Positions 9,037 to 61,882 are shown, numbered from the stretch's first letter. The stretch: DNA of 64,000 nt from Xenococcaceae cyanobacterium MO_188.B29 (GCA_030065155.1 JASJDI010000003.1:962-64961); one strand, 5' to 3'. Notes: generated from the letters alone by a model not told the origin. Numbers and translations: made by a program.

Positions 9037-12000
9037 TTAATCCAAAACAGCACTACGATTTAAAGCAATCAATTCCTTAAACTTGTCATTATCCAACTCC
9101 GTTAACCAAGATTCATCTGAACCTACTACCGCTTCGGATAACTTTTTCTTATCCTCAATCATTCGATCGATCTTTTCTTCCAAAGAACCTAAAGTAACAA
9201 ACTTGTGGACAAAGACATTCTTTTGTTGCCCGATGCGAAATGCCCTATCTGTAGCCTGATCTTCTACCGCAGGATTCCACCAGCGATCGAAATGAAAGAC
9301 ATGATTAGCTTTAGTTAAAGTAATCCCGACACCCCCAGCTTTGAGGGAGAGAATAAACACTGCTGGTGGGGTATCAGGATCTTGAAATTCTGAGATCATC
9401 TTTTCTCTTTTGTGGCGATTTGTACCACCGTGAATATAGTAAGTTTGATAGTGGTAATTATGGCGGAGATGGTGTTCTAAAGCGTCACCAATTTCGCGGA
9501 ATTGGGTAAAGATAAGCAGACTTTCTTGTTCTGCTTGCACTTCTTCTATCATCTCTTGGAGACGGGAAAGTTTATGCGATCGATCTGGACTAAATTCGCT
9601 TTCATCTTGCAAGAATTGTCGGGGATGGTTGCAAATTTGCTTCAGTTTCATCAAAGTAGAAAGAATTAAGCCTTTACGCTGGATTCCTTCTGCTTCTTCT
9701 AGTTGGTTTTCTACATCTTTAACTACTGCTTCGTAGAGGGAGGCTTGTTCTTTGGTAAGGTTGCAATAAACCTTCTGTTCTACTTTATCGGGTAAATCTT
9801 TGATAATATTTTTATCAGTTTTGACTCGGCGGAGGATAAACGGTTCGACTAATTTTTTAAGAGTAGTTGCCTTAACGCGATCGCTATCTTTCTGAATGGG
9901 AATTTCAAAGGCTTTGCGGAATTGGGTTTGTTTACCGAGATAGCCAGGATTGAGAAAATTAAAAATAGACCATAAATCTAAGAGGCGGTTTTCTACAGGA
10001 GTACCTGTTAAAGCCAGGCGATGAGGGGAATTAAGTTTGAGGATCGCTTTAGTTTGGGCAGCTTTGGGGTTTTTAATGTTTTGTGCCTCATCTAAAACTA
10101 TCCGTTGCCACTCCACACTATTAAATAGTTTGGCATCTTTGCGAGCAAGGGTATAGGAAGTAATAACTACATCTTGTTCTAAACTAGTTTGTTTAAATTC
10201 TTTAACTTCATTATGTCTGCTATTACCATGATGAACAATGGTTTTGAGATGGGGAGCAAATTTAGCAACTTCTTTTTGCCAGTTACCTAATACAGAAGTA
10301 GGGGCAATTAAAAGGGTAGGGGCAACTGTATCAGTATTATTTCTTTCTTGTACGAGACGAGCAATTACCTGTACCGTTTTTCCTAAACCCATATCATCGG
10401 CTAAACAGCCATTAAGTCCCAATTTTTCGAGATAATCTAACCAAGAAACCCCTCTTTGCTGATATTCCCGTAATTTACCTTGGAAATTAGCTAAATCTTC
10501 AACTAATTGAAACTGACTTTTATCATTGAGTTTCGTCAGCATCTCTTCGAGGGTGTCATCTCGTTCAAATTCTAAGTCTTCTCCTGCTTCCGCTTCCCTT
10601 TGCAGTAATTCCAGCAAAGACATTTCGGGATTTTCTGACCCCTGTTTCTGCCAAAATTCCAACATTTGCTGCATCTTAGCTAAGTCTAGTTCTACCCACT
10701 CTCCCCTAAACTTAACTAGGGGGACTTTGGCATTAACTAGTTGTTCCCATTCTGCTTGAGTTACAGGTTCATCTCCTATGGCTAGTTGATACTGGTACTG
10801 CACTAAGGTATCTAGACTAAAATAACCTTTAGTTTCTGATTTACTAGCAGATTTACTACTTGACGAGACTCTCAGACGCAATTTTGCCCGTTTTCTGCCT
10901 GTAGGAGTCCACCAAGAAGGAATAATTACTTTGAATCCTGCATCTTCTAGTACCCATGCAGTTTCTTTGAGAAATTCAAAAGCACTATCAATATCCAGAA
11001 ATACCGCTACAGGTTCACTAGTTTCCAATCCTTGCCACAGTTTAGGATAAATACGGGCAGCATAACCGAGATTGAGGAGTAAATTCGTTTCAAACTCTTT
11101 ACCAAATTGTTTTTGTAGAGCTTTTTTTTGCTGAGAATCAAATCGCCAATAGTCTGAGAGATAGAGTTTTAAAGACAGATCGGTTTTCGGTGCAACTAAA
11201 AACTTGAGTTGCCAAGCTTCTTCTGGTTTATCTGGTGCTTGGAGTTGAAAATAAAGATAAAAAGGAATTGCTGTATCAGCGCGATCGATCTTATCTCGCC
11301 ATACTTGCCATTGTTGATAATCTTCTAAAGCAGAATCATTAGATTTAGCTAAATGAATACAGTCAGCATCAAAGCATCTTTCTAAAAGTGTCCCTTCTAA
11401 TTGCCGTTCAAATTTAGCAGTAGAAGGGGTATGAGTGACGATATCAGTTAATAAAGATTCAGAAAAATGACGCAGTAAAGTTTCTGGTTGGTAAAATTGA
11501 GGCGATTTAGCAGGGGAAGCAAAACCAGCCACACAAGCTAAAGGCATTGACTCTAAGTAATCCTGAATATCAGACTCATATTGTGCCGAAATAATTTCCC
11601 AGCCAGGATAAATAGCAAAAGCGGACTGTTTTCGTTTTCTTTTTCCCGTAGAAGTATTTAATTCCTGGTATTTTAGGGAGGGAATATATTGATCTTTGAG
11701 GATAATCTGTTTAAAAGCTTGGGTGTAGTAATACCAAAATAATAAATCTGAACCGAGTTGAACTTCCGCAATGTTGTTAATCGTTAAAAAATGAAGATCA
11801 TTGAGTAGTTTAATCGCATTATTGACTTGATTGTAATTGTAGGAACTAGTTTTAACTGAGGCAGTAGCCAAATAACAATCAACTTGCCAATACTGAAAGT
11901 CAAACTCTTCTGGTAGTTCGGTTTCTAAATAACGAGATATCTCTAGAGAAGGTAAAGGCTGAGAGTCTGCTGTGGGTAAAAGAAAATATTTTGTTTCGAT

Positions 12001-12213
12001 CGATTCTGCTAGTTGGGAATATGGTGCTGGTTTAATACCCAACTCTTGGCTGAGGAATAAATATAATGAGTCTTTTGGCAGTTGTCGAGGATGAATCTGC
12101 GTAGATTTCTTATTCTTTTTAGCTTGGGTTGTCTCTACCCAAAGGTAGAATCCCCCAGACTGAGTAAATTCAGCATCACTATCTGGAATCCAAGTTCCAT
12201 GAAGAATTTTCAT
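9037..12213 (-). CDS. SNF2-family DEAD/DEAH-box helicase with long N-terminal SNF2-associated region
   Basis: 1058 aa. Helicase motifs LADDMGLGKT (I), LDEAQNIKN (II), LTGTPVEN (III), C-terminal LSLKAGGVGITLT and QATDRAFRIGQ (VI). Confidence 0.9.
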   Translation of the reverse strand: MKILHGTWIPDSDAEFTQSGGFYLWVETTQAKKNKKSTQIHPRQLPKDSLYLFLSQELGIKPAPYSQLAESIETKYFLLPTADSQPLPSLEISRYLETELPEEFDFQYWQVDCYLATASVKTSSYNYNQVNNAIKLLNDLHFLTINNIAEVQLGSDLLFWYYYTQAFKQIILKDQYIPSLKYQELNTSTGKRKRKQSAFAIYPGWEIISAQYESDIQDYLESMPLACVAGFASPAKSPQFYQPETLLRHFSESLLTDIVTHTPSTAKFERQLEGTLLERCFDADCIHLAKSNDSALEDYQQWQVWRDKIDRADTAIPFYLYFQLQAPDKPEEAWQLKFLVAPKTDLSLKLYLSDYWRFDSQQKKALQKQFGKEFETNLLLNLGYAARIYPKLWQGLETSEPVAVFLDIDSAFEFLKETAWVLEDAGFKVIIPSWWTPTGRKRAKLRLRVSSSSKSASKSETKGYFSLDTLVQYQYQLAIGDEPVTQAEWEQLVNAKVPLVKFRGEWVELDLAKMQQMLEFWQKQGSENPEMSLLELLQREAEAGEDLEFERDDTLEEMLTKLNDKSQFQLVEDLANFQGKLREYQQRGVSWLDYLEKLGLNGCLADDMGLGKTVQVIARLVQERNNTDTVAPTLLIAPTSVLGNWQKEVAKFAPHLKTIVHHGNSRHNEVKEFKQTSLEQDVVITSYTLARKDAKLFNSVEWQRIVLDEAQNIKNPKAAQTKAILKLNSPHRLALTGTPVENRLLDLWSIFNFLNPGYLGKQTQFRKAFEIPIQKDSDRVKATTLKKLVEPFILRRVKTDKNIIKDLPDKVEQKVYCNLTKEQASLYEAVVKDVENQLEEAEGIQRKGLILSTLMKLKQICNHPRQFLQDESEFSPDRSHKLSRLQEMIEEVQAEQESLLIFTQFREIGDALEHHLRHNYHYQTYYIHGGTNRHKREKMISEFQDPDTPPAVFILSLKAGGVGITLTKANHVFHFDRWWNPAVEDQATDRAFRIGQQKNVFVHKFVTLGSLEEKIDRMIEDKKKLSEAVVGSDESWLTELDNDKFKELIALNRSAVLD

Positions 12214-12468: not shown

Positions 12469-15435
12469 ATGAATCTATCACAGGTTTGGGGTTCTTTAAT
12501 TATTTTGCTAGGATGTCCTCTGCTAGGAGGATTGCCCTTAATCGAATGGATTACTTATGGAATTACTGGTCGTCAGTTGTCTAAACTAGGCACTGGAAAT
12601 ATTTCTGTATCGGCAGCTTTTTACCATGGCGGTAAATTAGTCGGAATTTTAGCTGTATTATCAGAAGCAAGCAAAGGAATTTTAGCTGTATTGCTCGCTC
12701 GCACCTTTTTTCCATTAGATTCAGTTTGGGAAATAATTGCTCTCATTGCCTTAGTAGTAGGACGTTACTGGATAGGGAAGGGAGCAGGAACAACTAATGT
12801 AGTATGGGGAGTTTTAGTGCATGATGCGATCGCTTTTGCCTTCGTTTTTTTTATTGGGGGTATTAGTTTTACCATCAATCGCGATCGTTTAGCAGGAAAG
12901 TTGGGAGTACTAGTTTTATTTGCTATTATTGTGGGGCTACGTCATGCCAGCCAACCAGAATATTTTGTGTCGGCTACCGCACTTTCTGCTTTGTTGGCGT
13001 GGATTTACCGACAAATACCTGATGATCTAGATTTACCCCCTAAGGGAGAAACAACGGATTCTCAAACTGTGTTTAGTTTTTTTCGCGGAGACAAAGCCAT
13101 TAGATCTTTAGATCGTCAATTAGATGCTACTAAAGTAGGGCAAAAAGCTGCTAATTTATCCTTCCTAAAACGCCTAGGCTATGCAGTTCCCGATGGTTGG
13201 GTAATTCCCCCGGGAGATGACCCTAAAACTGGTACTAGATTTTTACGACCTTCAGTTACAAATCCCTTGATTGTTCGCTCCTCTGCTATTGGCGAAGATT
13301 CAGCCAATGCTTCAGCAGCAGGACAATATTTAACTATTGCCAATGTTACTAGTCGTGAAGCTCTAATTTCAGCAATTATTGATTGCCAAGCTTCTTATAG
13401 TCAAGCTAACGCAGTAGATTATCGCCGTCTTACCCATAGTAATCTGAACAATTCAGAGAAAACCCAATCATCAGCAATGGCGGTAATAATCCAAAAACAG
13501 ATTAAGGGGTTATTTTCAGGAGTTGCTTTTAGCCGAGATCCCATTAATCAATTTACTCAAGCAGTAGCGATCGAAGTTTTACCAGGAGAAGCAGCCCAAG
13601 TAGTCTCAGGCAAGGTTACTCCTCAAAGATATTTAGTTAATCTACCTGAGTTTTCCTCTTCTGCTCAAGATCATGCCGATAGTAGTCAAATTGTTGTCAC
13701 CCCAGAAAATTCCAACTCTTCTTCTATTCTCATTCCTACGGAATTACTCGAATCTGTAGCTCTTATTGCTAGAGAATTGGAAGAACTTTTTCAAGGTATA
13801 CCCCAAGACATAGAATGGAGTTACGATGGCAAAAAATTGTGGTTACTGCAAACACGCTCTATTACTACGCTACAACCAATTTGGACACGCAAAATTGCAG
13901 CAGAAGTTATTCCTGGTCTGATTAAACCCTTAACTTGGTCAATTAATCAACCTCTAACGTGTGGGGTTTGGGGAGAGATTTTTCACCTAGTTTTGGGCAA
14001 AAAAGGACACGATCTCAATTTCCAACAAACCGCAACCCTACACTACAATCATGCCTATTTTAATGCAACCCTACTGGGAACAATATTTTTACGCATGGGT
14101 TTGCCCCCCGAAAGTTTAGAATTTTTAACTAGAGGAGAAAAATTCAGTAAACCATCCCTAAAATCTACCCTAAGCAACCTGCCTGGTTTATGGCGATTAT
14201 GCAAACGAGAATGGAATTTAGTTCAAGACTTCCAACAGGATTATGATAAATTATTTGCCTCAGCTTTAGCAGAAATTAAAGAAAAACCAGCTACAAAATT
14301 GGCTCCTAGCGAAATTTTATCTAGAATAGAGATTATCTTAGAACTCTTAGAACACGCAACTTACTATAGTATTCTGGCACCTTTAAGCTTTGCTCTCAGA
14401 CAAGCAATCTTCAAAATAGCAGATACAGAGTTAGATCAAAGCCAAACCCCAGAAATTGAATCAATGCGATCGCTCGCCGATTTAGCTGCTGATGCTCTTA
14501 AACTTCTTGCTCATGCAGAAATAAATACTGTTTCTAGTGCTTCTTTGTTTGCTCAGATAGCAGAAAATCCAGAGGGAGAATGCATTTTAGCCAGGTTTGA
14601 ACAATGGCTAGATAAATACGGTTATTTAAGTCAAGTAGCAACAGATATTTCTATTCCTCGTTGGCGAGATAATCCTCGTCCTGCCAGAGACATGTTTACC
14701 CGCTTTTTTAGCGATCCTGTACAAAGAAAACAAGCCCAATCTATTGCCCAAAAACAAATAACAGGGAATAGAGCTAAACTAGTCCAAACTAGGTTGAATT
14801 TAAAAGGTAAAGTTAGTGAGGTTTATAATCAGTTACTAGCTCATCTACGCTGGAGTTTCTTAGCATTAGAGGAACACTGGCTCAATGAAAAGAAATTAAA
14901 GGCATCAGGAGACATATTTTATCTGAAAATGCCAGAAATTAAGCATTTACAAGCAAATTATACCGAAAAACTTCAACAGGAGCTTTGGCAGTTAATTGCC
15001 CAAAGACAAGCAGAAACAGCAGCCAATAAAAAATTAGAGCATATTCCTTATCTTGTCTATGGCGATCGCACTCCTGTTATGTCAGCAACTAATACGCCTT
15101 TGATTGTTGATGCTCAAGTATTAAAAGGAATTGGTACAAGTCCAGGAAAAATAGAAGGCTCAGTTAAAATTTTGTCTGATTTTGCCAATATAGACCATAT
15201 AGATAAAAAGACAATTATCGTTGTTCCTTATACCGATGCAGGATGGTCGCCAGTATTAGCTCGCGCTGGTGGATTAATTGCAGAAGTGGGTGGTCGTTTA
15301 TCTCATGGAGCAATTATTGCTCGTGAATACGGTATTCCAGCAGTAATGGATATTCCTAACATTAATCAAATTTTACACAATGGTCAAAAAGTGAGAATAG
15401 ATGGTTTTTTAGGAGTAGTGGAAATTTTAGATTAA
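12469..15435 (+). CDS. Fusion protein: PlsY-like polytopic membrane domain + PEP-synthase/PPDK-type ATP-grasp + C-terminal PEP-utilizer swivel His domain
   Basis: 988 aa. N-terminal ~185 aa has multiple TM helices with GTGNISVSAAFYHGG...SKGILAVLLA (divergent PlsY GSGNxGATN..KG motif). The middle has VGQKAANL...VRSSAIGEDS...AAGQY (PPDK_N-like). The C-terminus has GGRLSHGAIIAREYGIPAV (phospho-His swivel). Confidence 0.75.
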   Translation: MNLSQVWGSLIILLGCPLLGGLPLIEWITYGITGRQLSKLGTGNISVSAAFYHGGKLVGILAVLSEASKGILAVLLARTFFPLDSVWEIIALIALVVGRYWIGKGAGTTNVVWGVLVHDAIAFAFVFFIGGISFTINRDRLAGKLGVLVLFAIIVGLRHASQPEYFVSATALSALLAWIYRQIPDDLDLPPKGETTDSQTVFSFFRGDKAIRSLDRQLDATKVGQKAANLSFLKRLGYAVPDGWVIPPGDDPKTGTRFLRPSVTNPLIVRSSAIGEDSANASAAGQYLTIANVTSREALISAIIDCQASYSQANAVDYRRLTHSNLNNSEKTQSSAMAVIIQKQIKGLFSGVAFSRDPINQFTQAVAIEVLPGEAAQVVSGKVTPQRYLVNLPEFSSSAQDHADSSQIVVTPENSNSSSILIPTELLESVALIARELEELFQGIPQDIEWSYDGKKLWLLQTRSITTLQPIWTRKIAAEVIPGLIKPLTWSINQPLTCGVWGEIFHLVLGKKGHDLNFQQTATLHYNHAYFNATLLGTIFLRMGLPPESLEFLTRGEKFSKPSLKSTLSNLPGLWRLCKREWNLVQDFQQDYDKLFASALAEIKEKPATKLAPSEILSRIEIILELLEHATYYSILAPLSFALRQAIFKIADTELDQSQTPEIESMRSLADLAADALKLLAHAEINTVSSASLFAQIAENPEGECILARFEQWLDKYGYLSQVATDISIPRWRDNPRPARDMFTRFFSDPVQRKQAQSIAQKQITGNRAKLVQTRLNLKGKVSEVYNQLLAHLRWSFLALEEHWLNEKKLKASGDIFYLKMPEIKHLQANYTEKLQQELWQLIAQRQAETAANKKLEHIPYLVYGDRTPVMSATNTPLIVDAQVLKGIGTSPGKIEGSVKILSDFANIDHIDKKTIIVVPYTDAGWSPVLARAGGLIAEVGGRLSHGAIIAREYGIPAVMDIPNINQILHNGQKVRIDGFLGVVEILD

Positions 15436-15556
15436 GTAAATAGGACAACACAAAAACAGCAATGTTAACAATTGTCAAATAGGGACTTAGCCTGAAATGT
15501 CCCTACTAACCACTAACTTAATAGATAATTTTAGAATCACAAATTCATAGATTTAT

Positions 15557-16609
15557 ATGCTAGCTCTTGTTATTGCTGTTGTTATAGTTATTTTGGGTTC
15601 AGCACTTTGTTCTGGCTCAGAAACTGCTCTTTTATCTGTTCCTTTAATTAAAGTTCGGCAACTAGCACAATCAAGAAAACCATCTGCTTTAGCACTCCTG
15701 GGAATTCGCAACAAAATTAATCGACCGATCGCGACGATTGTTATCCTCAATAATATTTTTAATATTGTTGGTAGTATTGTAATTGGCTCTTTGGCAGTAG
15801 AAGCATTAGGAGATACTTGGTTAGGAGTGTTTTCTGGCTTTCTTACTTTTTTAATTATTATTTTAGGCGAAATTATTCCTAAAACTTTAGGAGAACGTTA
15901 TGCAGAAAATATTTCCTTATTTATTGCTATACCGATTAAGTTTTTAACTATTTTATTCATTCCTTTAGTTTGGATAGTTGAAAGGGTAACTGCCCCAATT
16001 ACTCAAGGCAAACCAATTCCTACTACCAATGAAGCAGAAATTAAGTTTTTAACTAAAATTGGTTATCAAGAAGGAGTGATAGAAGATGACGAAGCCGAAA
16101 TGATTCAGCATGTCTTTCAACTGAATGATTTAACTGCATCTGACTTAATGACTCCTAGAATTATTGTTACTTATTTAAAAGGAAACTTAACTCTAACTGA
16201 ATGTAAACAAGAGATTATTTCTTCTCAACACACCCGTATTTTAGTGATTGAAAACTCTATTGATAATGTGATTGGTTTAGTCTTAAAAGATGAATTGCTT
16301 ACTGCCATGATTGAGGGGAATAAAGAACAAACAATCAATAATCTTGTACGTCAAGTGCGTTTTGTTCCTGAAACGATTAGAGCAGATAAATTATTAAAAG
16401 TTTTTCAAGAAACCAGAGAGCATTTAGCTGTGGTCTTAGATGAATATGGAGGGGTTGCAGGAGTAGTTACCTTAGAAGATGTTTTAGAAGTCTTAACAGG
16501 AGAAATTGTTGATGAAACCGATCGCAATGTCGATTTACAAGAAATTGCGCGCAAAAAAAGACAAAGACTATTGCAATCACAAGGAATTATTAACGAACAA
16601 AAACCCTAG
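15557..16609 (+). CDS. CNNM/DUF21 + CBS-pair membrane protein (hemolysin-family / CorC-type transporter-associated)
   Basis: 350 aa. N-terminal DUF21-type TM region (SGSETALLS) followed by tandem CBS-like repeats. Confidence 0.8.
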   Translation: MLALVIAVVIVILGSALCSGSETALLSVPLIKVRQLAQSRKPSALALLGIRNKINRPIATIVILNNIFNIVGSIVIGSLAVEALGDTWLGVFSGFLTFLIIILGEIIPKTLGERYAENISLFIAIPIKFLTILFIPLVWIVERVTAPITQGKPIPTTNEAEIKFLTKIGYQEGVIEDDEAEMIQHVFQLNDLTASDLMTPRIIVTYLKGNLTLTECKQEIISSQHTRILVIENSIDNVIGLVLKDELLTAMIEGNKEQTINNLVRQVRFVPETIRADKLLKVFQETREHLAVVLDEYGGVAGVVTLEDVLEVLTGEIVDETDRNVDLQEIARKKRQRLLQSQGIINEQKP

Positions 16610-16671
16610 ATAATATTTTTTAATCAGGAGTGAGTTAAATATTATCTAGAGTAATAATCAATTTTCTGTGC

Positions 16672-17067
16672 TTAATTTATTGGCTGAAATTCTTTGGCAA
16701 AATCTTGAACAACAACAGAATCGTAGAAAAGGCGTTCGTGAATGATGTAGCCTTCTTGCCAGGTTTGCATACTCAATTTTTCGATATTCATCAAATTTCC
16801 ATCTTGAGTGACAACATTAAGATTAATTTCCATTACCGAGCGATCGCTATCGAATAATACTGCACCAATATTAAAATCATGAACTTCTTTAATATTGGCA
16901 TTAATGTGCTGTTGTCGTTCAATGCTAAGGGCGCGTCCATATCGAGGAGGTAGCAAATTCTCTTGAAAAACCATATTATCGGCATAAAATCGCATATATA
17001 CTTCTTCTATTGGAGGATTGGTCTTTAAAAAATCCACCAGTTGTTCAACTCGTTCACGTACAGTCAT
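16672..17067 (-). CDS. Small NTF2/SnoaL-like fold protein (function unknown)
   Basis: 131-aa ORF with a pattern compatible with SnoaL-like proteins. Assignment is weak. Confidence 0.45.
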   Translation of the reverse strand: MTVRERVEQLVDFLKTNPPIEEVYMRFYADNMVFQENLLPPRYGRALSIERQQHINANIKEVHDFNIGAVLFDSDRSVMEINLNVVTQDGNLMNIEKLSMQTWQEGYIIHERLFYDSVVVQDFAKEFQPIN

Positions 17068-17509
17068 AATTACTTGAGGATGTAAGTCTGGTTATGTTCG
17101 ATTAAAAGCAAATCTGGTTTGTACTTTCACTACCTAAAATCAGAACCTAATCAATGAATTTCTTCATCTTCACTTTTAATAAGTGTTGCTTAAAAAATTA
17201 TTTAGATTAGATCCACTAATATATCAATATAAAAAATTTTAGCTACCTGTGTCTTGTCGATTATTGGGCAAAAATAGTTAAATATTGTGGATTTAGAGTA
17301 ATTATAGCCGTGTGCAGACTGCTTAAGCACAGCAACAGCAATAATATGTTTCCAATTAATACTTATTCTTATTAAGAGCTAGATAAATTATTTTTGTAAA
17401 TATTAATTATTGCAGCTATAACTTTTTCTTAACATTAATTTAATAATTTGCTTATTATCTTAGTTGATATGGGAACTCTATAAATATCAATTCATAAAAA
17501 TTTTAATTA

Positions 17510-17848
17510 ATGGAACTTGTAAATCCGTCAATAGAACAGCTAGTAACAGAAATCATAGCTGTAAATCACGCATGGAAAGAAGCAAAAGATTTATTTGAGG
17601 AAACTGCTTCACCATTAGTAAATTCACTGAGAGATTTAAAAACTCGTTTACAAATTCAACTTTTGCGTAATTATGCGCCAGAGTGGGTTTTTCTCATAGA
17701 AGATACTCAAGCAGAAAGTGATGAAACTCTTTATGGTTTGCAGCTTGTAAAAGCTATTGGAAGTTGGAGAGATGCTGCACATTTACCAGTTAGAGTCGCA
17801 CAAGAAAATTTATCGTCACAAGAATTAGAAGTATTTATCAAAAGCTAA
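17510..17848 (+). CDS. Hypothetical 112-aa acidic protein, first gene of the Zorya-like cassette
   Basis: ORF ends 28 nt upstream of the ZorA-like gene on the same strand. No recognisable motif, predicted helical, no TM. Confidence 0.55.
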   Translation: MELVNPSIEQLVTEIIAVNHAWKEAKDLFEETASPLVNSLRDLKTRLQIQLLRNYAPEWVFLIEDTQAESDETLYGLQLVKAIGSWRDAAHLPVRVAQENLSSQELEVFIKS

Positions 17849-17876
17849 TTTCAAATTTCAAATAAGGTAGTAACTA

Positions 17877-19478
17877 ATGATTAATAATATATTTTATTTA
17901 GTGATTTTTATTTTTGCATTTAGTATTGGTATTGTCGAAACGATATCTATCAATACTTATCAGAAAAAAGATTGTAAGATCGCTAAAAAAGCGATCGCAG
18001 AATTAAACAAATGCAAAATAGATAATCGTGACTATATTAAAGTAGCCAATCAAGAGTCAGAAATAATTAAATGGTTTTCTCAACATCTTAAAGGAGAATT
18101 TCAGCCATCAGCTTTTAAATTAGAACAAGATCAGAATGGTGATTTTATTTTACTTTCTTATCCTTCTATTTTAGGAAAACCAGTACCTCGAAGTCCTGTT
18201 AGTTTTGCTCCCGCTTTATTAACCGCAATCGGTATTTTGGGAACTTTTACTGGTATTTTCTTGGGTTTACAAGGAGTAGATTTGGGAAATATTAGTGAAA
18301 CTCAACAACTAATAGCAGCTAGTCAAAAATTATTAATGGGAATGAAAACATCGTTTTCTACTTCTTTATTTGGCTTGGGTGCTGCCATTACTTTTATTAT
18401 ATTCTTATCTTTAGGAGCACAGCAGCGTACTAGATTTCGCAATAGTTTGCGTAAAAAACTAAACGATATTGCTTTTCTAGAAAATCCTGCTCATCTTTTA
18501 TCTCGTCTAGATAATGAAGGAAATCTAGAAGTTGCTAAAACACTTCAAACTGTTGCTAATAATTTATCAGGTTTAAATGCTGATGTAATTGCTAATGCTA
18601 TTAAAAGTGCGATCGCCTCACCAGATAGCCCTTTAGTTTGGGAATTAAAACAACTTAGAGAGCTTCAAGAAAGTCAAGGAAAAACTGTAGAAAGTTTAGT
18701 AAAACAATTACGCACTGAATTAATTGAACCCGTAGTCACTAGATTAGATCAAAGTGCAGCATTAACGAAAGAAGCATCAGCAGCAGTAACGAATTTAAAA
18801 AATGAACTAGGCGGTATTAGTCAAAGTTTAGCAGGTGCGGTAACTACTATTCAAAGCTTTCAACAAGATACCTTAATTAAATTACAGGAATTTACTATTG
18901 AATTAAGAAATATTTTAGGAGAATTTCAAACAGATACTAAAGGTGTTTTAGAAGATGTAGCTTCAGAAATCAATCGTGCTGTAGAACAAAGTATTCAAGG
19001 TATGGAACAGCAGCGTACTATCTTTAAAGAAGATGTAGAGAGAAGAGAAAAACTTATTCAGCAGATAGAACAAAGCATGGATAAAATTCAGCAGACAGTT
19101 AAAGTAACTAGTAATTTAGCTAGTGCTATTGGTTTAAGTGATAGCCAGCGTCTTGCCGAACAACAAGCATTTTTCCGCGAAATTGGTCAAAGTGCTAACC
19201 AAGTGACTAAACAATATAGCACTATGATCGATCGCTTTAATGACGCTCTAAATATTGGTAATGAACAGCTAACTGACTACTTAAAACAAGCCAACGAAAC
19301 TTATAGCAAGAGTGTACAAGATGTAGATAAAGCTGCTGCTGATATTTGTAATAAGTTAAACGAAACTTCTCATGGTTTGATGAGTGCTGCTGAATTATTA
19401 GTTTCTGCTACTCACGAATTCAAACATAGTAGTAATGATAACGATTTAATTTTTGCTGGAAATAACAGGAGTAAATAA
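17877..19478 (+). CDS. ZorA-like MotA/ExbB/TolQ-family stator protein with ~340-aa coiled-coil tail
   Basis: 533 aa. TM1 (residues ~5-25), ~80-aa loop, then channel helices LLTAIGILGTFTGIFLGL and FSTSLFGLGAAITFIIFLSL. A long Q/E/K/L-rich helical C-terminus follows. Confidence 0.7.
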   Translation: MINNIFYLVIFIFAFSIGIVETISINTYQKKDCKIAKKAIAELNKCKIDNRDYIKVANQESEIIKWFSQHLKGEFQPSAFKLEQDQNGDFILLSYPSILGKPVPRSPVSFAPALLTAIGILGTFTGIFLGLQGVDLGNISETQQLIAASQKLLMGMKTSFSTSLFGLGAAITFIIFLSLGAQQRTRFRNSLRKKLNDIAFLENPAHLLSRLDNEGNLEVAKTLQTVANNLSGLNADVIANAIKSAIASPDSPLVWELKQLRELQESQGKTVESLVKQLRTELIEPVVTRLDQSAALTKEASAAVTNLKNELGGISQSLAGAVTTIQSFQQDTLIKLQEFTIELRNILGEFQTDTKGVLEDVASEINRAVEQSIQGMEQQRTIFKEDVERREKLIQQIEQSMDKIQQTVKVTSNLASAIGLSDSQRLAEQQAFFREIGQSANQVTKQYSTMIDRFNDALNIGNEQLTDYLKQANETYSKSVQDVDKAAADICNKLNETSHGLMSAAELLVSATHEFKHSSNDNDLIFAGNNRSK

Positions 19479-19480
19479 TC

Positions 19481-20200
19481 ATGAACGCTTTTGAACACTT
19501 TGAACCAGATACAGAAGTTGAGGAAGATAACGCAGGTATTTGGTTATCCATAAGTGACTTAATGTCTGGGTTATTAATGTTTTTTGCTTTGCTATTTATT
19601 GTAGTACAGGTTCAGCTTCAGCAGGAAATAATTAGAGCGCAAAGATTAGAAAAAGAACTAGAAACGTACAAAAAAGTGATCGATCAATTACCTTTAAGAA
19701 TAATTAGTGCAATTGAGGGTAAATTTGGTCAGGGAATTGTGGAGATCGATCCGAAAACAGGAGACGTAAAAATAGGAGATCGCATTCTATTTGATGAAGG
19801 AAGTGCGAAATTAAAACCCGTAGGAAAACAATTTCTTAAACAATTTATTCCTATATATAGTGATGTTATTTTCTCTGACACAGTTTTTGAAAATCAGATT
19901 ACTCGTGTTGTCATTGAAGGTCATACTAGTTCTAAAGGTTCAGATAAAGCTAACATGGACTTAAGCCTTAGACGGGCTTTATCTGTATCGAATTATATCT
20001 TTTCTCAACAAGTAAATTTTGATACCAAACAACAGTTTAAACAAAAAATATTAGCTTCTGGCAGAGGTGAAATAGATGCAGACAAGAGTAAAGATAATCC
20101 AATTGATCGCAAAGTGGTTTTCCGTTTCCAGTTCCGAAGAGAAGACTTTGGTGAATTACTCAAAAGAGCTAATACTGTAGAAAAATCTGTTACTAAATGA
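19481..20200 (+). CDS. ZorB-like MotB/OmpA-family protein
   Basis: 239 aa. Single TM with Asp (WLSISDLMSGLLMFFALLFIV) and an OmpA-type peptidoglycan-binding domain (FDEGSAKL..., VIEGHTSSKGSDKANMDLSLRRALSVSNYI). Starts 2 nt after the ZorA-like stop. Confidence 0.75.
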   Translation: MNAFEHFEPDTEVEEDNAGIWLSISDLMSGLLMFFALLFIVVQVQLQQEIIRAQRLEKELETYKKVIDQLPLRIISAIEGKFGQGIVEIDPKTGDVKIGDRILFDEGSAKLKPVGKQFLKQFIPIYSDVIFSDTVFENQITRVVIEGHTSSKGSDKANMDLSLRRALSVSNYIFSQQVNFDTKQQFKQKILASGRGEIDADKSKDNPIDRKVVFRFQFRREDFGELLKRANTVEKSVTK

Positions 20201-21684
20201 ATATTCAATTTCGTAGAATACACTTACCGCCATTGCCAACAGTTAATGCCCAAGCTTTAGTAAAGTTAGCAGGAAAAGAGCAAAATACTGGTTTAAAAAC
20301 CCCCTTTTTATCCGTAGATATACCTAAAAAACAAACTGTTTCGCGCTCTAATTTAGATGAAATTATTCGAGACATAGAAAGTGGTCAAATTGAAAAGATT
20401 ACTATCTTGGAGTGGATACACTGTCTTTACAATAAAGAAAAATGGGATATTAAACATCCTAATAGAATTAAACCCACATCTGAAGCAATTTGGAAAGCAG
20501 CAGGAAATAATTCTTGGTTAAAACAAAAATTATTCTGGAATTTAGTTCTCGATCTTAGTGGCAGAAACGTTTTAGCTTCATCTTTAGCAAAAAGCTACTC
20601 TATTTTTTCCCCTCAAGATTCGATCGATAGAAAAAGATTAGCCATAATCAAAGCTTTTCAAGCACAAAACCCCAAAGTTCAATTAATAGAACTCTGTTGG
20701 CAAGAGCTACTAACCCCTCGCGAACTTTTTTTTCAACATCAGCTTCCCAGCAAAATTCCTATCATTGAAAAATGCCTAACTGTTGTTGTTTCTCAATTTT
20801 CTCAAATTACTTCTCGTAATGATGAACAAATTGATTGGCTGTTAAGATGCTTTGAAGAAATGAATCAAGAACAGCAAGTAAAAGCTGTAGAATATCTACT
20901 TATTGAAAGTGATCCTAAACTTGGTGCAGAACGTCCAGAATTAATTAATTGGTTACATCAACATTATGGTTCTTCTTTACCAAATTCCCGTTGGAGTGAA
21001 CTTTCTTCAGAAGCAAAAGCAGCAATGCGAAAGTGGATTGGTGCAGTAAGTTATCAAGATTTCCAAAAACTAGTGAGTCTGATTTTAGAACGACTACATT
21101 TACAAGATTTTGAGCATAATCGATTGAGAAGTCGTAGCAAATTTTGGTCTAATTATAGCGATCACTTTGAACGAATTCGGATTTTATTACCTGAAAGTTC
21201 AGTCAATATTTTAGGTAATTATCTTAGTAATCAAGATATAAGTATTTTACTAAATGATGGCAGCGATCCCACAGAAGTATGTATTTTTGATTTTGGTGAT
21301 TGGTTTGTAATCGAGTTTTTTCGTGGTGATGGTAGTGAAACCTCTATTATTAGAAAAGACCCTGAGATTGAACAAAAACTTTTTCACTCTCAATTATCAG
21401 TTAAGCGTCTTCGTTGCCTCGATCGCAATATTCACGATCATGAGTTTTGCTGGCAGTATTTTTGCGAACAATTACTGAGAACCAAAAATATTTTTCCTAA
21501 TGAAAATATCCAGTATTTCAAAGGCTTATCCGATCGACATCGGAGATACAATCGACAAACAGGATTACCCAAACCATCTCCACAAAACTTACAAAAGCGA
21601 AGATATAAAGTAGAAAGATGGCAGCAAAAAATGGTTTGGTTAGAGAGAGAAGCCAAAGAATATTGTCAAAGACATTGCCTGTAG
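20197..21684 (+). CDS. ZorC-like protein (candidate EH-signature domain)
   Basis: 495 aa. ATGA overlap with the ZorB-like gene. Trp-rich helical protein. Candidate signature elements are FEHNRLRSRSKFWSNY (res ~304-320), and WFVIEFFRGDG (E373) followed ~40 aa later by IHDHEFCWQYF (H413/H415). Basic C-terminal tail. The assignment rests on operon context and needs an HMM search. Confidence 0.5.
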   Translation: MNIQFRRIHLPPLPTVNAQALVKLAGKEQNTGLKTPFLSVDIPKKQTVSRSNLDEIIRDIESGQIEKITILEWIHCLYNKEKWDIKHPNRIKPTSEAIWKAAGNNSWLKQKLFWNLVLDLSGRNVLASSLAKSYSIFSPQDSIDRKRLAIIKAFQAQNPKVQLIELCWQELLTPRELFFQHQLPSKIPIIEKCLTVVVSQFSQITSRNDEQIDWLLRCFEEMNQEQQVKAVEYLLIESDPKLGAERPELINWLHQHYGSSLPNSRWSELSSEAKAAMRKWIGAVSYQDFQKLVSLILERLHLQDFEHNRLRSRSKFWSNYSDHFERIRILLPESSVNILGNYLSNQDISILLNDGSDPTEVCIFDFGDWFVIEFFRGDGSETSIIRKDPEIEQKLFHSQLSVKRLRCLDRNIHDHEFCWQYFCEQLLRTKNIFPNENIQYFKGLSDRHRRYNRQTGLPKPSPQNLQKRRYKVERWQQKMVWLEREAKEYCQRHCL

Positions 21685-22196
21685 GCGTTTGGCAATGCCA
21701 AATCGTTTCATAGTATTTGAAATTCAGGAAGCCCAAATCAAGCACATAAAGTGCTCGCCCTCCTATCTCTACACTAGCAAAAACAGGAACTCCTGTAATG
21801 AAAGAAAGTTGCTACTTGTACAAAGTTTGTTACAGAAATCAACAAAGTATTAAGTATTTTCCGTCATCAGATCGGTCACTGTAGTGATGATTAATACTAT
21901 TAGTGGGTAATAAAAACTAATCAGGTGCAAAATAACCTGTCATGAAAGCGATACGATCTCCTCAAGAGTTCGTACCATTCAAGTCGGTGGTGCTTACAAA
22001 GGACGGACGCGGAACTCGTTGTCAACCTACTTCAAGAACTGTTCACCATCTCTCTGCTAAACACGCTAAATAACCCACCAAAACCAGAAAGTTTGCTTGC
22101 ACTTAGTCTGCTAGCAACTAAAATAATTAGTCAGCGTTACTAGCAAAAGAAACTAGGATCGATTGAAATCGAATAATGTTTTTGTACTATTATTAG

Positions 22197-23798
22197 ATGA
22201 ACACTCACGAACATAATAAAAATCAATTTGCTTTAACTACTCCCCTTTACTATGTTAATGATATTCCTCATATTGGTAGTGCCTATCCCACTATGGTAGC
22301 GGATGCGATCGCTCGTTTTCAGCGTTTGCAGGGTAAACCAGTTTTGTTTATTACGGGTGTAGACGAACACGGTCAAAAAATTCAACGTACGGCAGAAGAA
22401 AAAGGATTAGATCCGCAATCTTTCTGCGATAGCATTGTCCCAAGTTTTAAGTCTCTTTGGGATAAGCTCAATATTCAATACGATCGCTTTAGTCGTACTA
22501 ATGCAGCTAATCATGAACCAATAGTGAGAGAATTTTATCAAAGAGTATGGGATAAAGGAGATATCTACTTAGACCAACAGCAGGGTTGGTACTGTGTTTC
22601 TTGTGAAGAATTCAAAGAAGAACGAGAACTGCTAGAAGATGGCTGCTGTCCTCTTCATCCTAATAAAAAAGCTGAGTGGAGAGACGAAGAAAATTACTTT
22701 TTTAAACTATCTAAATATCAACAGCAACTAGAAGATCTTTATCGAGAAAAACCAGATTTCATTCAACCAGAAACTCGCCGAAATGAAGTCCTTAATTTTG
22801 TTAAACAAGGATTAAAAGATTTCTCCATTTCTCGTGTTAATTTAGACTGGGGTTTTACTGTTCCTCATGATCCCAAGCATACAATTTATGTTTGGTTTGA
22901 TGCTTTACTTGGTTATGTAACTGCTTTATTAGAACCAGAACAAGAACCAACTTTGGCTAATGCTGTATCTAAATGGTGGCCAATTAATTTGCATCTAATT
23001 GGCAAAGACATTTTGCGTTTTCATGCAGTGTATTGGCCGGCAATGTTAATGTCTGCGGAATTGCCATTGCCAGGCAGAGTTTTTGGTCATGGTTTCCTGA
23101 CTAAAGATGGCAGAAAAATGGGTAAAACTTTAGGCAATACGATCGATCCTTTTGCCTTAGTTGATAAATATGGTTCAGATGCTGTTCGCTATTACTTTCT
23201 CAAAGCAATTGAATTTGGTAAGGACGGAGATTTTAATGAAACTCGCTTCATTAATATTCTCAATGCAGATTTAGCTAACGATCTCGGCAACTTGCTCAAC
23301 CGTACCTTGGGTATGCTCAAAAAATACTGTCAGGGTAATGGTCCTCAGCTTACCGCAGCAGATTTAGATCGAGAACATCCCCTCAAAAAAATTGGTGATG
23401 GTTTGAGCGATCGCGTTGCCTTAGCTTACGATAACTTACAATTTAGCCAAGCTTGTGAAGAAATCTTTACGTTAGTCAGAGCTAGTAATAAGTACGTTGA
23501 TGAAAGCGCACCATGGTCTTTGTTCAAACAAAATCGAGAAAGTGAAGTAAAACAGATATTGTATGCTGTTCTAGAATCGGTTAGACTATCAGCTTACCTA
23601 TTGTCTCCTATTATTCCTGGTTTGAGCAGTGACATCTATCAACAATTAGGATTTTCTGTTGATTTTAATAATAAAACACAAAATTTAGAATCTGCTTTGT
23701 TTAAGCAACATTCCCAATATGGCAAACTAACTGCCAATCAAAATCTGGGCAAGGCTCGTCCCATCTTCTCCAAGCTAGAATTACCGTCAGAAAACTGA
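22197..23798 (+). CDS. metG: Methionyl-tRNA synthetase
   Basis: 533 aa. HIGH motif (PHIGSAY), Zn knuckle (CVSCEEF...CCPLH) and KMSKS variant (KMGKTLGN). Confidence 0.95.
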   Translation: MNTHEHNKNQFALTTPLYYVNDIPHIGSAYPTMVADAIARFQRLQGKPVLFITGVDEHGQKIQRTAEEKGLDPQSFCDSIVPSFKSLWDKLNIQYDRFSRTNAANHEPIVREFYQRVWDKGDIYLDQQQGWYCVSCEEFKEERELLEDGCCPLHPNKKAEWRDEENYFFKLSKYQQQLEDLYREKPDFIQPETRRNEVLNFVKQGLKDFSISRVNLDWGFTVPHDPKHTIYVWFDALLGYVTALLEPEQEPTLANAVSKWWPINLHLIGKDILRFHAVYWPAMLMSAELPLPGRVFGHGFLTKDGRKMGKTLGNTIDPFALVDKYGSDAVRYYFLKAIEFGKDGDFNETRFINILNADLANDLGNLLNRTLGMLKKYCQGNGPQLTAADLDREHPLKKIGDGLSDRVALAYDNLQFSQACEEIFTLVRASNKYVDESAPWSLFKQNRESEVKQILYAVLESVRLSAYLLSPIIPGLSSDIYQQLGFSVDFNNKTQNLESALFKQHSQYGKLTANQNLGKARPIFSKLELPSEN

Positions 23799-23897
23799 AT
23801 CTTTAATAAAAAGTAATCAATTATTAAGAAGGTAAACATAGCCAGGGAGGTACTTAAAACAAAAAAACACTTTTTCATATAAAAAGAGGCATAAAAA

Positions 23898-24503
23898 ATG
23901 TTAGATAATTTTGAAAGCGATCCGATTTTTACCCCGGAGCAAATATTAGAAAATAGAGGAAGAGTTGCTATCTTTATTGATGGCTCTAATCTGTTCTATG
24001 CAGCACTACAGTTGGGTATCGAAATCGACTATAGCAAACTACTGTCTCGCTTAACAGGGGGATCGCGTTTACTCCGTTCTTTCTTTTACACTGGTGTCGA
24101 TCGAACTAACGAAAAACAGCAAGGATTTTTACTCTGGATGCGCCGTAATGGGTACAGGGTAATAGCTAAAGATTTGGTGCAACTACCCGATGGCTCGAAA
24201 AAAGCTAATTTAGATGTAGAAATTGCTGTGGATATGATGGCATTGGTAGGAGCTTATGATACTGCTATTCTGGTTAGTGGTGATGGAGATCTAGCCTATG
24301 CTGTTGATGCAATTAGTTATCGCGGTGCTAGAGTAGAAGTAGTTAGCCTCCGCTCTATGACTAGTGATAGCTTAATTAATGTGGCCGATCGCTATATTGA
24401 CCTTGACCAAATTAAAGAAGATATTCAAAAAACAACTCGAACTAACGATCCCTATCGGAGTTTTTCCAGTTTTGGCATTTTGGACGCTGAGCATCCAAGA
24501 TGA
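23898..24503 (+). CDS. NYN-domain (LabA/DUF88-like) protein
   Basis: 201 aa. AIFIDGSNLFYAA ... ILVSGDGDLAYAV, typical of NYN/LabA ribonuclease-fold proteins. Confidence 0.8.
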   Translation: MLDNFESDPIFTPEQILENRGRVAIFIDGSNLFYAALQLGIEIDYSKLLSRLTGGSRLLRSFFYTGVDRTNEKQQGFLLWMRRNGYRVIAKDLVQLPDGSKKANLDVEIAVDMMALVGAYDTAILVSGDGDLAYAVDAISYRGARVEVVSLRSMTSDSLINVADRYIDLDQIKEDIQKTTRTNDPYRSFSSFGILDAEHPR

Positions 24504-49782: not shown

Positions 49783-52700
49783 ATGTTAAAGTTAACCAGA
49801 TATAGATTAAATATTGTTTTTGCATTAGGGTTAATCGCGCTCATTCCCTTTCCTGGAATGGCTCAGATTACGCCTGATGATACGTTGGGGAATGAAAGAT
49901 CGCAGGTCAACCGCAATGTCCAGGTCAGGGGCGGGAATGCCGATCGAATTGAGGGTGGAGCGACACGAGGCGCGAATCTGTTCCACAGTTTTCGAGAGTT
50001 TAACGTGAATGAGGGGCAGCGGGTTTATTTTGGCAATCCCTCTGGAATTGCTAATATTCTCGGTCGGGTGACGGGCAGGGATGTATCTGACATTATGGGT
50101 ACGCTGGGTGTGGATGGGGATGCGAATCTGTTTTTGCTCAATCCCAATGGCATTATTTTTGGACCAGATGCCCGTTTAGATATTAGTGGATCGTTTGTTT
50201 CCAGTACGGCAAATAGTTTTACGTTTTCCGATGGGACTGAGTTTAGTGCGACCAATCCAGGAAACTCGTCTCTGTTAAGTGTGAATGTGCCGTTGGGGGT
50301 GCAGTATGGACCGAATGCTCCAGGAGCGATCGCCAATGCTGGAACTCTATCTGTAGGACAGAACTTTACGTTGTCTGGGGGTAGCGTCACCAGTACGGGT
50401 CAATTGGCTGTACCGTCAGGGCAGCTTCTAATCGAAGGCGTTGCGGGAGATGTGCGGGTTAGGAATGCCAGCGCACAGACTGCGACTTTCTCGGCTAGTA
50501 ATAACCTGATTTTACAGGATAGTCAGCTTCAGACGGCAGGAGATTTGAACCTGTTGGCAGGTAATACGGTGCAGGTGCGGGATAGCGTGGCAAATCCCTT
50601 CGTTGCTTACTCTGGGGGGAATTTAACGGTTCAAGGCAATCAGGGTATTGATATTTTTGCATTGAATCATCCTTCTAGTGGGCTGGTTTCTGGTGGGGAT
50701 ATGGTGTTGCGATCGGCTAACACGGTAGGAGGAGATGCTCACTATTGGACGGGCGGTAACTTTCGGATCGAGCAATTGAATGGTGAGTTGGGTAGTCTGT
50801 TCAGTCCTTACGATCCTGTAATCCGTTCTATTGGAGATGTCAGTTTTGAGAGTTACGAAGGAGCTTCCTTGCATATTTTTGCGGGAGGAAGTGTGACTAT
50901 CGGTGGTAATGTAAGGATTACAGGTGTGGATGCAATGAATGGAATTTCTGATTCATTCAGTTTGGTAGACCCAAGCGATCCCACTGTTACAGTACCAGTA
51001 GATATTGATGGCGCATCTTTTCCAACACTCGATATCCGAGCAGGGATTACTGACAGCTCATTACTCACACCATCCCTGACACCAGAGACTAACTTTCCAG
51101 GGACAGGTACTCTCTCCCCTAATAATACACCTTCTTTAAATGAAGACCCTATTGGCTCAACTATTAGGATAGGTAGTATTACGAATCGTTCTCCTGGTGG
51201 TAGAGGACAAGTTCTTCTTACAAATCAGTATAGAAGTGATGGCTCAGTTCCAGGTTTAATTGAAATTACAAGTGGAATCATAGATCCACAAGCTACTAAT
51301 TTAGGTTCTCAATCTATTAGTGCCTATGGTAGTGATGTCATGATCGTATCTAGCGGTAATGTCAGAATTGCTAATGGTGCGATTACTGGTTCTGGTGGTA
51401 GTGACGGTGGTAGTATTCAAATCTATAGTGGTGATAGCATTACAACCGACAGCTTGCAATCGCTAGCTAATAATGGAAATGGTGGTAGTGTTACTCTTAG
51501 TTCGCTTGGCACTATTATGGCGGGCAATATAGTTTCTGTCACTACCGCCAACGGAGAAGCTGGCGGAGAAATCACCATCACAGCTAATGGCGGAGATATT
51601 AGGACAGGAGCTATTCGATCATTTGTCGGAAATTATGATAATGACACAGATGTATCAACTGGAGGTACTGGCAACGCAGGCGATATCAGATTAGATGCTC
51701 CCAATGGTCTCATTGATGTCAATGGTCGAATTGCCTCTTTTACAGGCAGTGGTAATGCCGGTAATATAAGCCTTAATGCTAGAGGTAATGTTGAAATCTT
51801 TTCTGCTCGATCGTTTGTAGGAAGCTATGATCCATCTAAAAATACAGATGAAAATCCCAGCGGTGGGGTTGAAACTGGAATTGGAAGTGCAGGAAACATT
51901 ACTATCAGCTCTTCAATCGGAGATATTACGTTAGATCCTAACGGTCCAAGAGATTTATTAGCCTTTAGCCGTGACTCTACTGAATTTAGTACGATTAGAC
52001 TTGATGCAGAACAAGGCTCTGTAACTCTAGATAGAGCAACATTTAATACCACAAATGAGGGTTCTGGTAATGCAGGTGATATTTATATTGGTGCTGAAGA
52101 TGAAATCAGGATTGTTAATAATAGCACAATCTCAACTGATGGAAACTTCGGACGAGTTTTTCTCGGACCAAACAGCGATGAACCAGACATTACATCCCCT
52201 CAGAGGATCACCATCACTGATAGTAGGATTACTGCGACTGAAAACATTGATACTGAGGATATTGTGGCAGGTGATATTTATATTGGTGCTGATGATGAAA
52301 TTCAACTTAACAACAGCGAAATCTCAACTGATGGAAACTTAGGGCGAATTTTTCTCGGACCAAACAGCGAAGAGCCAAACATCACCTCACCTCAGAGGAT
52401 CGCCATCACCAATAGTAGGATTACAACAAGATTAGAAGAAGAAGCAACTGGCACCAGTGGCGATATTAAAATCACTGCCGACTCATTTCGCCTCACAGAT
52501 GGTGCTCAATTATCTAGCAGTACTTTTGGAAATGGAGATGCTGGTGCGATCGAGATTAATGCTGAATATGAGGTGCTTATCACTGGAGCTGACACAGACA
52601 TCTTCAATCAAATTACGAGAAATGCAACTGGAGACGGCGGTAGTATTACAATCACTACAAACTCATTTGAACTCTCTGAAGGTGCCGAATTATCTGCCAG

Positions 52701-59741: not shown

Positions 59742-59751
59742 TTGTTTATTG

Positions 59752-61875: not shown

Positions 61876-61882
61876 GATTAAT

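Follow-up and report, generated by a model that had tools for sequence, protein, structure and literature searches.

A cyanobacterial zorABC cassette headed by a small acidic protein and without an adjoining zorD gene

The four genes of the cassette

A stretch of 64,000 nucleotides (nt) from the metagenome-assembled genome (MAG) of Xenococcaceae cyanobacterium MO_188.B29, in the following called the window, carries four open reading frames (ORFs) on the plus strand at 17510-21684 that resemble a Zorya anti-phage system. An earlier note, made from the sequence alone, had described them as a Zorya-like ZorA/ZorB/ZorC cassette with an additional leader gene and without the effectors ZorD or ZorE. 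Its reading of four co-directional ORFs and of their junctions was exact: between ORF1 and ORF2 lies a 28-nt gap with AAGG ahead of the ATG of ORF2, between ORF2 and ORF3 a 2-nt gap with AGGAG preceding, and at the junction of ORF3 and ORF4 the stop codon overlaps the start codon in ATGA. The layout appears to be that of a translationally coupled operon. The product names at NCBI are hypothetical protein for ORF1 and ORF2, OmpA family for ORF3 and EH-signature-domain protein for ORF4.

ORF2 matched the PADLOC model ZorA1 (PDLC00597) with 526 bits and the Pfam family MotA_ExbB with 21.6 bits, the latter slightly below the cut-off of 22.9. Sequence matches in the PDB were 8vvn_C, a chain of 696 residues with a MotA/TolQ/ExbB domain (2.4e-6), and E. 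coli ZorA, 8qyh (0.006). The protein has three hydrophobic helices and a helical cytoplasmic tail of about 340 amino acids (aa) with weak coiled-coil-type Pfam matches. The motifs LTAxGxxGTFxG of the second and KTxFxTSxxG of the third transmembrane (TM) helix are kept. Together these features confirm ORF2 as a ZorA.

ORF3 was matched over its full length by the PADLOC model ZorB1 (PDLC00609, 267 bits), and the Pfam family OmpA was found with 5.4e-14. An N-terminal TM helix carries Asp26 (WLSISD26LM) and is followed by an OmpA-type peptidoglycan-binding domain. Asp26 is essential in E. coli ZorB (PMC11946911), and the protein of the window has the aspartate at the same position. The PDB sequence matches 8vvi, 8qyd (E. 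coli ZorB, 9.1e-9) and 8vvn ranged from 1e-9 to 8e-8, and ORF3 is confirmed as a ZorB. Some Oscillatoriales-type cassettes encode two tandem ZorB paralogues between ZorA and ZorC, observed in L008 (8362-9827, 252 and 215 aa), L021, L026 and L038, which suggests a possible ZorB heterodimer in these cassettes.

ORF4 encodes a basic protein (isoelectric point, pI, 8.98) with 15 tryptophan residues. The PADLOC model ZorC1 (PDLC00618) covered it almost completely (650 bits, 1-491 against 1-495 of 495), and Pfam EH_Signature (PF15611) was found with 3.6e-23. Neither phmmer nor a profile of 33 sequences found E. coli ZorC among the PDB sequences. The AlphaFold2 model (per-residue confidence, pLDDT, 85.3) had a single significant Foldseek match in the PDB, and this was E. 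coli ZorC, 8r68 (E 2.1e-5, probability 1.00, 351 columns, 16 % identity). Sequence and model confirm the assignment of ORF4 as a ZorC that is highly divergent from the E. coli protein. The invariant residues E373, E381, H413, D414 and H415 fit the EH signature. In the model, residues ~326-430 form an alpha/beta core of a helix, three to four strands, a helix and a strand, which carries the invariant D365, E373, R376, E381, K403 and H413-D414-H415; the order of these predicted elements is reminiscent of PD-(D/E)xK nucleases. A metagenomic locus (L095, 13096-14925) encodes a ZorC of 609 aa that is extended at the C-terminus by an S1CSD-TOTE-2 domain. This fold is of the S1/cold-shock nucleic-acid-binding type and consistent with an action of ZorC on nucleic acid.

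The architectures that the earlier note had assigned, a ZorA with channel helices and a long tail, a ZorB with a TM aspartate and an OmpA domain, and a tryptophan-rich ZorC-like protein with EH elements, were thus borne out for all three genes. Of the Pfam families it had proposed as a check, OmpA and EH_Signature were significant, but MotA_ExbB stayed under its cut-off.

The leader protein ORF1 (112 aa, pI 4.65) had been called unrecognisable, and its single sequence indeed gave zero matches in Pfam, NCBIfam, PADLOC and PHROGs. A Pfam scan of 31 aligned members yielded no recurrent family, and a sequence-profile search of the PDB returned nothing at E <= 10. The AlphaFold2 model (pLDDT 90.2; predicted template-modelling score, pTM, 0.83) predicts the order alpha-alpha-beta-beta-beta-alpha-alpha: a pair of long helices is followed by a sheet of three strands and a pair of short helices. 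When this model was compared with PDB and BFVD by Foldseek, all matches had E > 0.1 and TMq <= 0.41. A RelE/ParE-type toxin, considered for the helix-helix-sheet order, was dropped as a candidate: Foldseek and Pfam gave no support and the protein is acidic. Homologues numbered 99 in a word search. In an exhaustive HMMER search, 149 clusters were recovered among 1.84 billion representatives; nearly all consist of standalone proteins of 100-140 aa, and no fusion to a large protein was among these 149. Family-wide invariants are I15, Q48, H91 and P93; N19, W22, K44, L62, D65 and A89 are conserved in at least 90 %.

Conservation of the cassette and search for effector genes

When one genome per species was scanned with a ZorC profile, 154 encoding stretches were confirmed, and the best 80 of these were compared. 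All 80 were cyanobacterial or cyanobacteria-binned and comprised Pleurocapsales, Chroococcales-type unicells, Oscillatoriales and Nostocales. The order ORF1-ZorA-ZorB-ZorC was recovered by tblastn in essentially all loci with enough sequence. Sixty-three loci were evaluable for the leader gene, as they contained the N-terminus of ZorA and 600 nt or more ahead of it; an ORF1 homologue was located directly upstream of ZorA in 62, the exception being Microseira wollei (L050). In three of three complete genomes, Gloeothece PCC 7424, Stanieria PCC 7437 and Halothece PCC 7418, an ORF1 homologue heads the same cassette. The identity of ORF1 tracks that of ZorC (r = 0.84).

Distant members of the ORF1 family lead outside the cyanobacteria. 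One (P0400) belongs to a marine Myxococcales/Deltaproteobacteria MAG, where a protein of 111 aa precedes a ZorA of 673 aa (PDLC00597), a ZorB of 234 aa (PDLC00609) and an EH_Signature protein of 498 aa, followed by unrelated genes. Another (P0454) occurs in Vibrio neonatus, V. ezurae and V. breoganii, with 119 aa ahead of a ZorA of 818 aa, a ZorB of 213 aa and a ZorC of 473 aa, for which the same three PADLOC models score best. Three more metagenomic contigs repeat the ORF1-ZorABC pattern. Judged from these sequences, the lineage appears to span at least three bacterial phyla, with ORF1 as its signature gene. In V. neonatus (L090, AP024886.1, 10001-19471) a second set follows directly after ORF1-ZorABC, consisting of a ZorA-like protein of 630 aa (PF28082, ZorA-like_t1), a ZorB of 246 aa, an unassigned protein of 321 aa and a ZorB-like protein of 322 aa.

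The absence of ZorD was judged from the surroundings of the cassette, that is, in the window and within 10 kb in the relatives. No ZorD or ZorE adjoins the cassette in the window, in the 80 cyanobacterial loci or in eight ORF1-anchored contexts. The claim of an operon without either effector therefore holds, and the synteny comparison, proposed in the earlier note to recognise a decayed copy, found no orthologous locus with an adjoining zorD or zorE. A downstream SNF2 gene within 10 kb was present in none of the 80 related loci, and 79 of them had none on either side. The non-coding gap behind ZorC contains no ORF of at least 60 aa with SNF2 similarity. ZorE models matched none of the four cassette proteins and did not appear among the 25 best families listed for nine large ORFs of the window; ZorF (DUF3348) and ZorG (DUF2894) had no match in the cassette proteins.

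The window encodes one SNF2 protein, on the opposite strand upstream of the cassette (Table 1), and a tblastn search of the window with this protein returned its own gene alone. It might serve as ZorD in trans and make the locus a canonical type I system. The protein obtained 450 bits on the PADLOC model ZorD1 (PDLC00633), has like E. coli ZorD a non-helicase N-terminal region (~575 aa), and an orthologue lies ~5.5 kb upstream of the cassette in Nostoc sp. WHI (L034). The match is restricted to the helicase core, though, and DpdE models scored equally (440 bits). In the PDB the closest match was the Sulfolobus SNF2/Rad54 core 1z63 with 481 bits; E. coli ZorD (8qy7) reached merely 254 bits, no better than INO80/ISWI. 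The N-terminal half is a member of the 'SNF2 helicase-associated' family PF12419, also present in Chloroflexota, Beggiatoa, Marithrix and Spirochaetota, and the gene lies next to murA, rubredoxin, ycf48 and psbEFLJ. An SNF2 gene within 10 kb of the cassette is lacking in 79 of the 80 loci and in the ORF1-anchored contexts. A close relative with a decayed cassette, L097, has no SNF2 gene within 10 kb, although an SNF2 orthologue was located on a contig of equal length. The candidate was rejected as a generic SNF2/DUF3670 helicase unlinked to the cassette elsewhere, and a type I system completed in trans is improbable. Generic SNF2 helicases that score on ZorD models could yield a false 'ZorD' in automated defence annotation.

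Decayed copies of the cassette are common. They were seen in L071 and L097, the closest Xenococcaceae-type relatives, and in several Nostoc loci in which most of ZorA is gone. Locus L097 (6309-10822) has an upstream IS66 transposase, a ZorA remnant of 220 aa and a ZorC broken into pieces of 175 and 273 aa; in L071 (8267-10525) only the ZorA residues 1-177 and 468-527 are left. Such copies in close relatives, together with the shortened ZorA tail in the window, would be expected of a type I remnant that lost ZorD and has ORF1 as an unrelated neighbour. Against a remnant stand the ORF1-headed, ZorD-less layout, kept through several cyanobacterial orders and at least two more phyla, the parallel divergence of ORF1 and ZorC, and four intact ORFs with apparent translational coupling. 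The ratios of non-synonymous to synonymous substitution rates (dN/dS) against the two nearest intact relatives are 0.12-0.42 for all four genes (ORF1 0.21-0.29, ZorA 0.14-0.32, ZorB 0.12-0.19); all four are under purifying selection. The remnant explanation is largely refuted and barely credible. We read the four genes as an intact operon that belongs to a distinct and conserved Zorya lineage without ZorD, ordered ORF1-zorA-zorB-zorC and almost always headed by ORF1, and assign this reading a probability of roughly 0.6. The suggestion in the earlier note of a new Zorya subtype has gained strength from the retention of ORF1 in nearly every evaluable locus and beyond the cyanobacteria.

The individual copy in the window may differ from the lineage in activity. 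Its ZorA has 533 aa, compared with 595 aa in the closest relative (L087) and 704-708 aa in other Pleurocapsales, and the alignment places an in-frame loss of ~175 aa chiefly in the middle of the tail. An assembly artefact is unlikely, because the identical sequence was found on four contigs from three sources (NCBI, ENA, Logan). In E. coli, tail deletions at the beginning, the middle and the tip of ZorA all led to a loss of defence (PMC11946911), and decayed copies are among the nearest relatives. These points would fit a defence lineage of which the window holds an inactive member. The reading frame is intact, however, the head and the tip of the tail are conserved, and dN/dS of ZorA against the 595-aa copy of L087 is 0.14. 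Tail length also varies widely in the lineage, with a ZorA median of 668 aa from ATG-only ORF calling that underestimates some lengths, so the tail may be tunable within the lineage. For some genes, e.g., ZorC of Nostoc, these calls are too short, and such lengths were not used as evidence of truncation. An inactive copy is regarded as unlikely.

Surroundings of the cassette in the window

Table 1. Positions of the cassette genes and of further features in the window
Feature	Position	Strand	Description
SNF2/DUF3670 helicase	9037-12213	-	1058 aa, 5.3 kb upstream of the cassette
PlsY-like fusion ORF	12469-15435	+	988 aa
Upstream non-coding gap	17068-17509		442 nt, 25 % GC
Candidate sigma-70-type promoter	17429..17458	+	TTAACA, 18 nt, TATTAT; 10/12 consensus matches
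ORF1	17510-17848	+	112 aa, acidic leader protein
ORF2 (ZorA)	17877-19478	+	533 aa
ORF3 (ZorB)	19481-20200	+	239 aa
ORF4 (ZorC)	20197-21684	+	495 aa
Downstream non-coding gap after ZorC	21685-22196		512 nt; position of ZorD in type I; then metG-like ORF
Ser/Thr kinase with TPR repeats	32185-34746	+	853 aa
Region of elevated GC content	49783-62974		GC 0.41-0.48

The flanking gaps, estimated in the earlier note at about 440 and 510 nt, agree with the measured lengths. The upstream gap contains a promoter candidate from a consensus scan alone; this candidate is weak, since promoter-like sites showed no excess over shuffled sequences. No plus-strand terminator was called in the gap after ZorC, and an Rfam scan of 15000-24000 detected no RNA element. 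The neighbours of the cassette are the metG-like ORF and an ORF of 131 aa without a PHROGs match. Meaningful direct or inverted repeats were not found in the flanks, nor an adjoining tRNA gene.

HIP1 sites (GCGATCGC) had been noticed at ~17988 and ~18612 and were located at 17991 and 18609. The whole window contains 31 such sites against 0.29 expected by chance, and the HIP1 density of the cassette is host-like. The AT-richness claimed for the locus is real but modest. The segment 18001-18060 has 17 G+C in 60 positions, as had been counted, but the bias is small at the level of genes: GC content is 0.327-0.348 and GC content at third codon positions (GC3) 0.174-0.229 in the cassette, in comparison to 0.377+-0.025 and 0.268+-0.029 for 26 other genes below 49 kb. 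The related idea of an inserted defence islet is weakly supported. Relatives of the cassette do sit in varied contexts, including a plasmid and a conjugative element; against an insertion in the window stand the modest compositional bias, the normal HIP1 density, the lack of flanking repeats and tRNA, and the housekeeping neighbours.

Three further features of the window were recorded. In the 988-aa ORF, a G3P_acyltransf (PlsY-like) membrane domain at the N-terminus is joined to PPDK_N and PEP-utilizers domains, an unusual fusion. The Ser/Thr kinase reached 518 bits on the PADLOC PD-T4-6 models, which is probably generic kinase similarity. The last part of the window, with a GC content above the ~0.37 found elsewhere, encodes a TPS-domain exoprotein of 1396 aa, an ShlB/POTRA transporter, a TPR-CHAT protein and a trypsin-CHASE2 protein, with overlaps of successive ORFs (53882 against 53973; 56038 against 56086). 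This part may represent a two-partner-secretion/CHAT island that is foreign or evolves separately.

Possible function and relation to known Zorya systems

Type I Zorya (zorABCD) has been characterised in E. coli NCTC9026 and Shewanella ANA-3 (PMC11946911, PMC11890865). In the E. coli system, ZorA5B2 sits in the inner membrane as a rotary sensor, driven by protons and anchored to peptidoglycan, and reacts to perturbation of the envelope at phage entry, and the signal passes via the ZorA tail to the DNA-binding ZorC (PMC11946911). By analogy, the ZorA and ZorB of the cassette would form the same kind of motor and sensor, and the ZorA tail would relay the signal to a DNA-binding ZorC. The effector step, the weakest part of this scheme, would have to differ from type I because the SNF2 nuclease is absent. 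Our preferred assumption is that ORF1 acts as a lineage-specific adaptor or regulator and takes over part of the role of ZorD. Being acidic, ORF1 could bind to the basic ZorC or to the ZorA tail, and either the alpha/beta EH core of ZorC would act on DNA or the ORF1-ZorC pair would recruit a host nuclease.

The genomic contexts of the relatives bear on the question of a defence function. Flanking genes differ between lineages, and the nearest intact relative (ZorC 89 % identical) has its cassette in another context. In Gloeothece citriformis PCC 7424 (L081, CP001291.1, 5902-16546) the cassette is bordered by a TraG-type coupling protein with a RelB-like gene on one side and a relaxase/NikA pair on the other, and is inside a conjugative or mobilisable element; ZorA was called there as two ORFs of 456 and 220 aa. 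On plasmid2 of Nostoc sp. HK-01 it abuts a DpdE/DrmD-like helicase, a DrmMI-like methyltransferase and a DruE-like helicase. This neighbour is a separate DISARM/Dpd/Druantia-like defence system and not a ZorD. In L094 and L095 the cassette is near UvrD/DUF4145 and AAA_11/12 helicases. These defence-like traits, namely the defence neighbour on a plasmid, the conjugative element, nearby helicases, varied contexts and frequent decay, lend contextual support to a role in defence.

A ZorAB-type envelope motor or sensor could also have been domesticated for a role outside defence, e.g., in signalling of envelope stress or in the handling of DNA at the membrane. Housekeeping genes flank the cassette in the window and in Stanieria and Halothece, about 20 Nostoc loci share a conserved chromosomal site among a TerC-like gene, arginine decarboxylase and a sugar nucleotidyltransferase, and the HIP1 density speaks for a resident gene set; besides, a search of viral contigs with the ZorC profile gave no relative, and a nuclease effector is not recognisable. 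Domestication fits poorly with the patchy distribution, the frequent decay and disruption by insertion sequences, with the plasmid copy beside another defence system and the copy in a conjugative element, and with contexts that differ among close relatives. Every characterised ZorABC homologue is anti-phage (PMC11946911, PMC11890865). We consider a domesticated function rather unlikely.

Several observations nevertheless weigh against the interpretation of the locus as an intact operon of a ZorD-less Zorya lineage. The defence role of the lineage and its effector are inferred. Deletion of ZorD abolishes defence in the type I systems of both E. coli and Shewanella, yet the effector of the cassette was not found. 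Any role of ORF1 is purely conjectural, because the protein has no homologue of known function. With its short ZorA tail, the copy in the window may be impaired or altered in activity, by comparison with the E. coli deletions. The housekeeping flanks, the conserved site in Nostoc and the host-like HIP1 density fit a long-resident and possibly non-defence function.

Going further than the ZorD-less reading itself, ORF1 and the divergent ZorC might constitute a new effector module that replaces ZorD. The EH core of ZorC would then be catalytic, and the acidic ORF1 would be an inhibitor or tail adaptor released by the rotation of ZorAB. The lineage would thereby represent a fourth Zorya type with another killing mechanism, present in at least three phyla. 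This proposal is tentative.

Zorya is among the most widespread and mechanistically most unusual anti-phage systems, with a rotary motor as sensor. The ZorD-less lineage offers a natural minimal comparison, as it keeps ZorABC, drops the 'essential' ZorD and adds a protein of 112 aa; it directly raises the questions of ZorC's activity on its own and of the motor's minimal signalling output. Phage defence of cyanobacteria has been little studied experimentally, and the candidate system is present in the culturable Stanieria PCC 7437, Gloeothece PCC 7424, Halothece PCC 7418, Chlorogloeopsis PCC 6912 and Nostoc.

Among the known systems, type I shares most features with the cassette. Both have a ZorA whose head is MotA-like and whose helical tail is long, a ZorB with the TM residue Asp26 and a peptidoglycan-binding domain, an EH-signature ZorC of the same fold, and tightly coupled genes in the order zorA-zorB-zorC. 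The cassette differs from type I by the absence of ZorD, the SNF2-type helicase-nuclease essential in the characterised systems, and by the conserved small acidic protein encoded upstream of zorA. Its ZorC is 16 % identical to E. coli ZorC in the structural alignment, and the model has one long helix at its end, where a globular domain was reported for E. coli ZorC (PMC11946911). Some members of the lineage have in addition two ZorB paralogues.

With type II (zorABE) and type III (zorFABG/zorGABF) the cassette has in common a ZorAB core combined with subtype-specific soluble partners, and with the published orders of type III an accessory gene ahead of zorA, the position of ORF1. The HNH protein ZorE of type II and the type III proteins ZorF (DUF3348) and ZorG (DUF2894) are not in the cassette, ORF1 matches no PADLOC Zor model, and ZorC, present in the cassette, is not part of types II and III. 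Cyanobacteria have no flagella. The similarity to the 5:2 motors MotAB, ExbBD and TolQR consists of the TM2 and TM3 motifs and of a single-TM partner with a conserved aspartate and an OmpA-like domain; the cassette is set apart from them by the ~340-aa tail of ZorA, the EH-signature partner and a MotA_ExbB score below the gathering threshold.

In the literature searched, only three Zorya subtypes are described, and a ZorD-less form, a 'type IV' or an ORF1-like component was not found there. Surveys retained only the canonical orders zorABCD, zorABE and zorFABG, and for this reason a ZorD-less form would have stayed undescribed so far. Such filters in PADLOC-based studies are a blind spot that would miss more than 150 cyanobacterial loci, plus the myxobacterial and Vibrio ones. 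The PADLOC Zor models derive from the locus lists of Doron et al., and the three type I models fit the lineage over the full length, so that its proteins are stored under 'type I' labels. With ZorA, ZorB and ZorC recognised and ZorD, ZorE and ZorF/ZorG missing, the cassette ought not to be classed as type I and has the appearance of a Zorya subtype without ZorD that has so far not been described.

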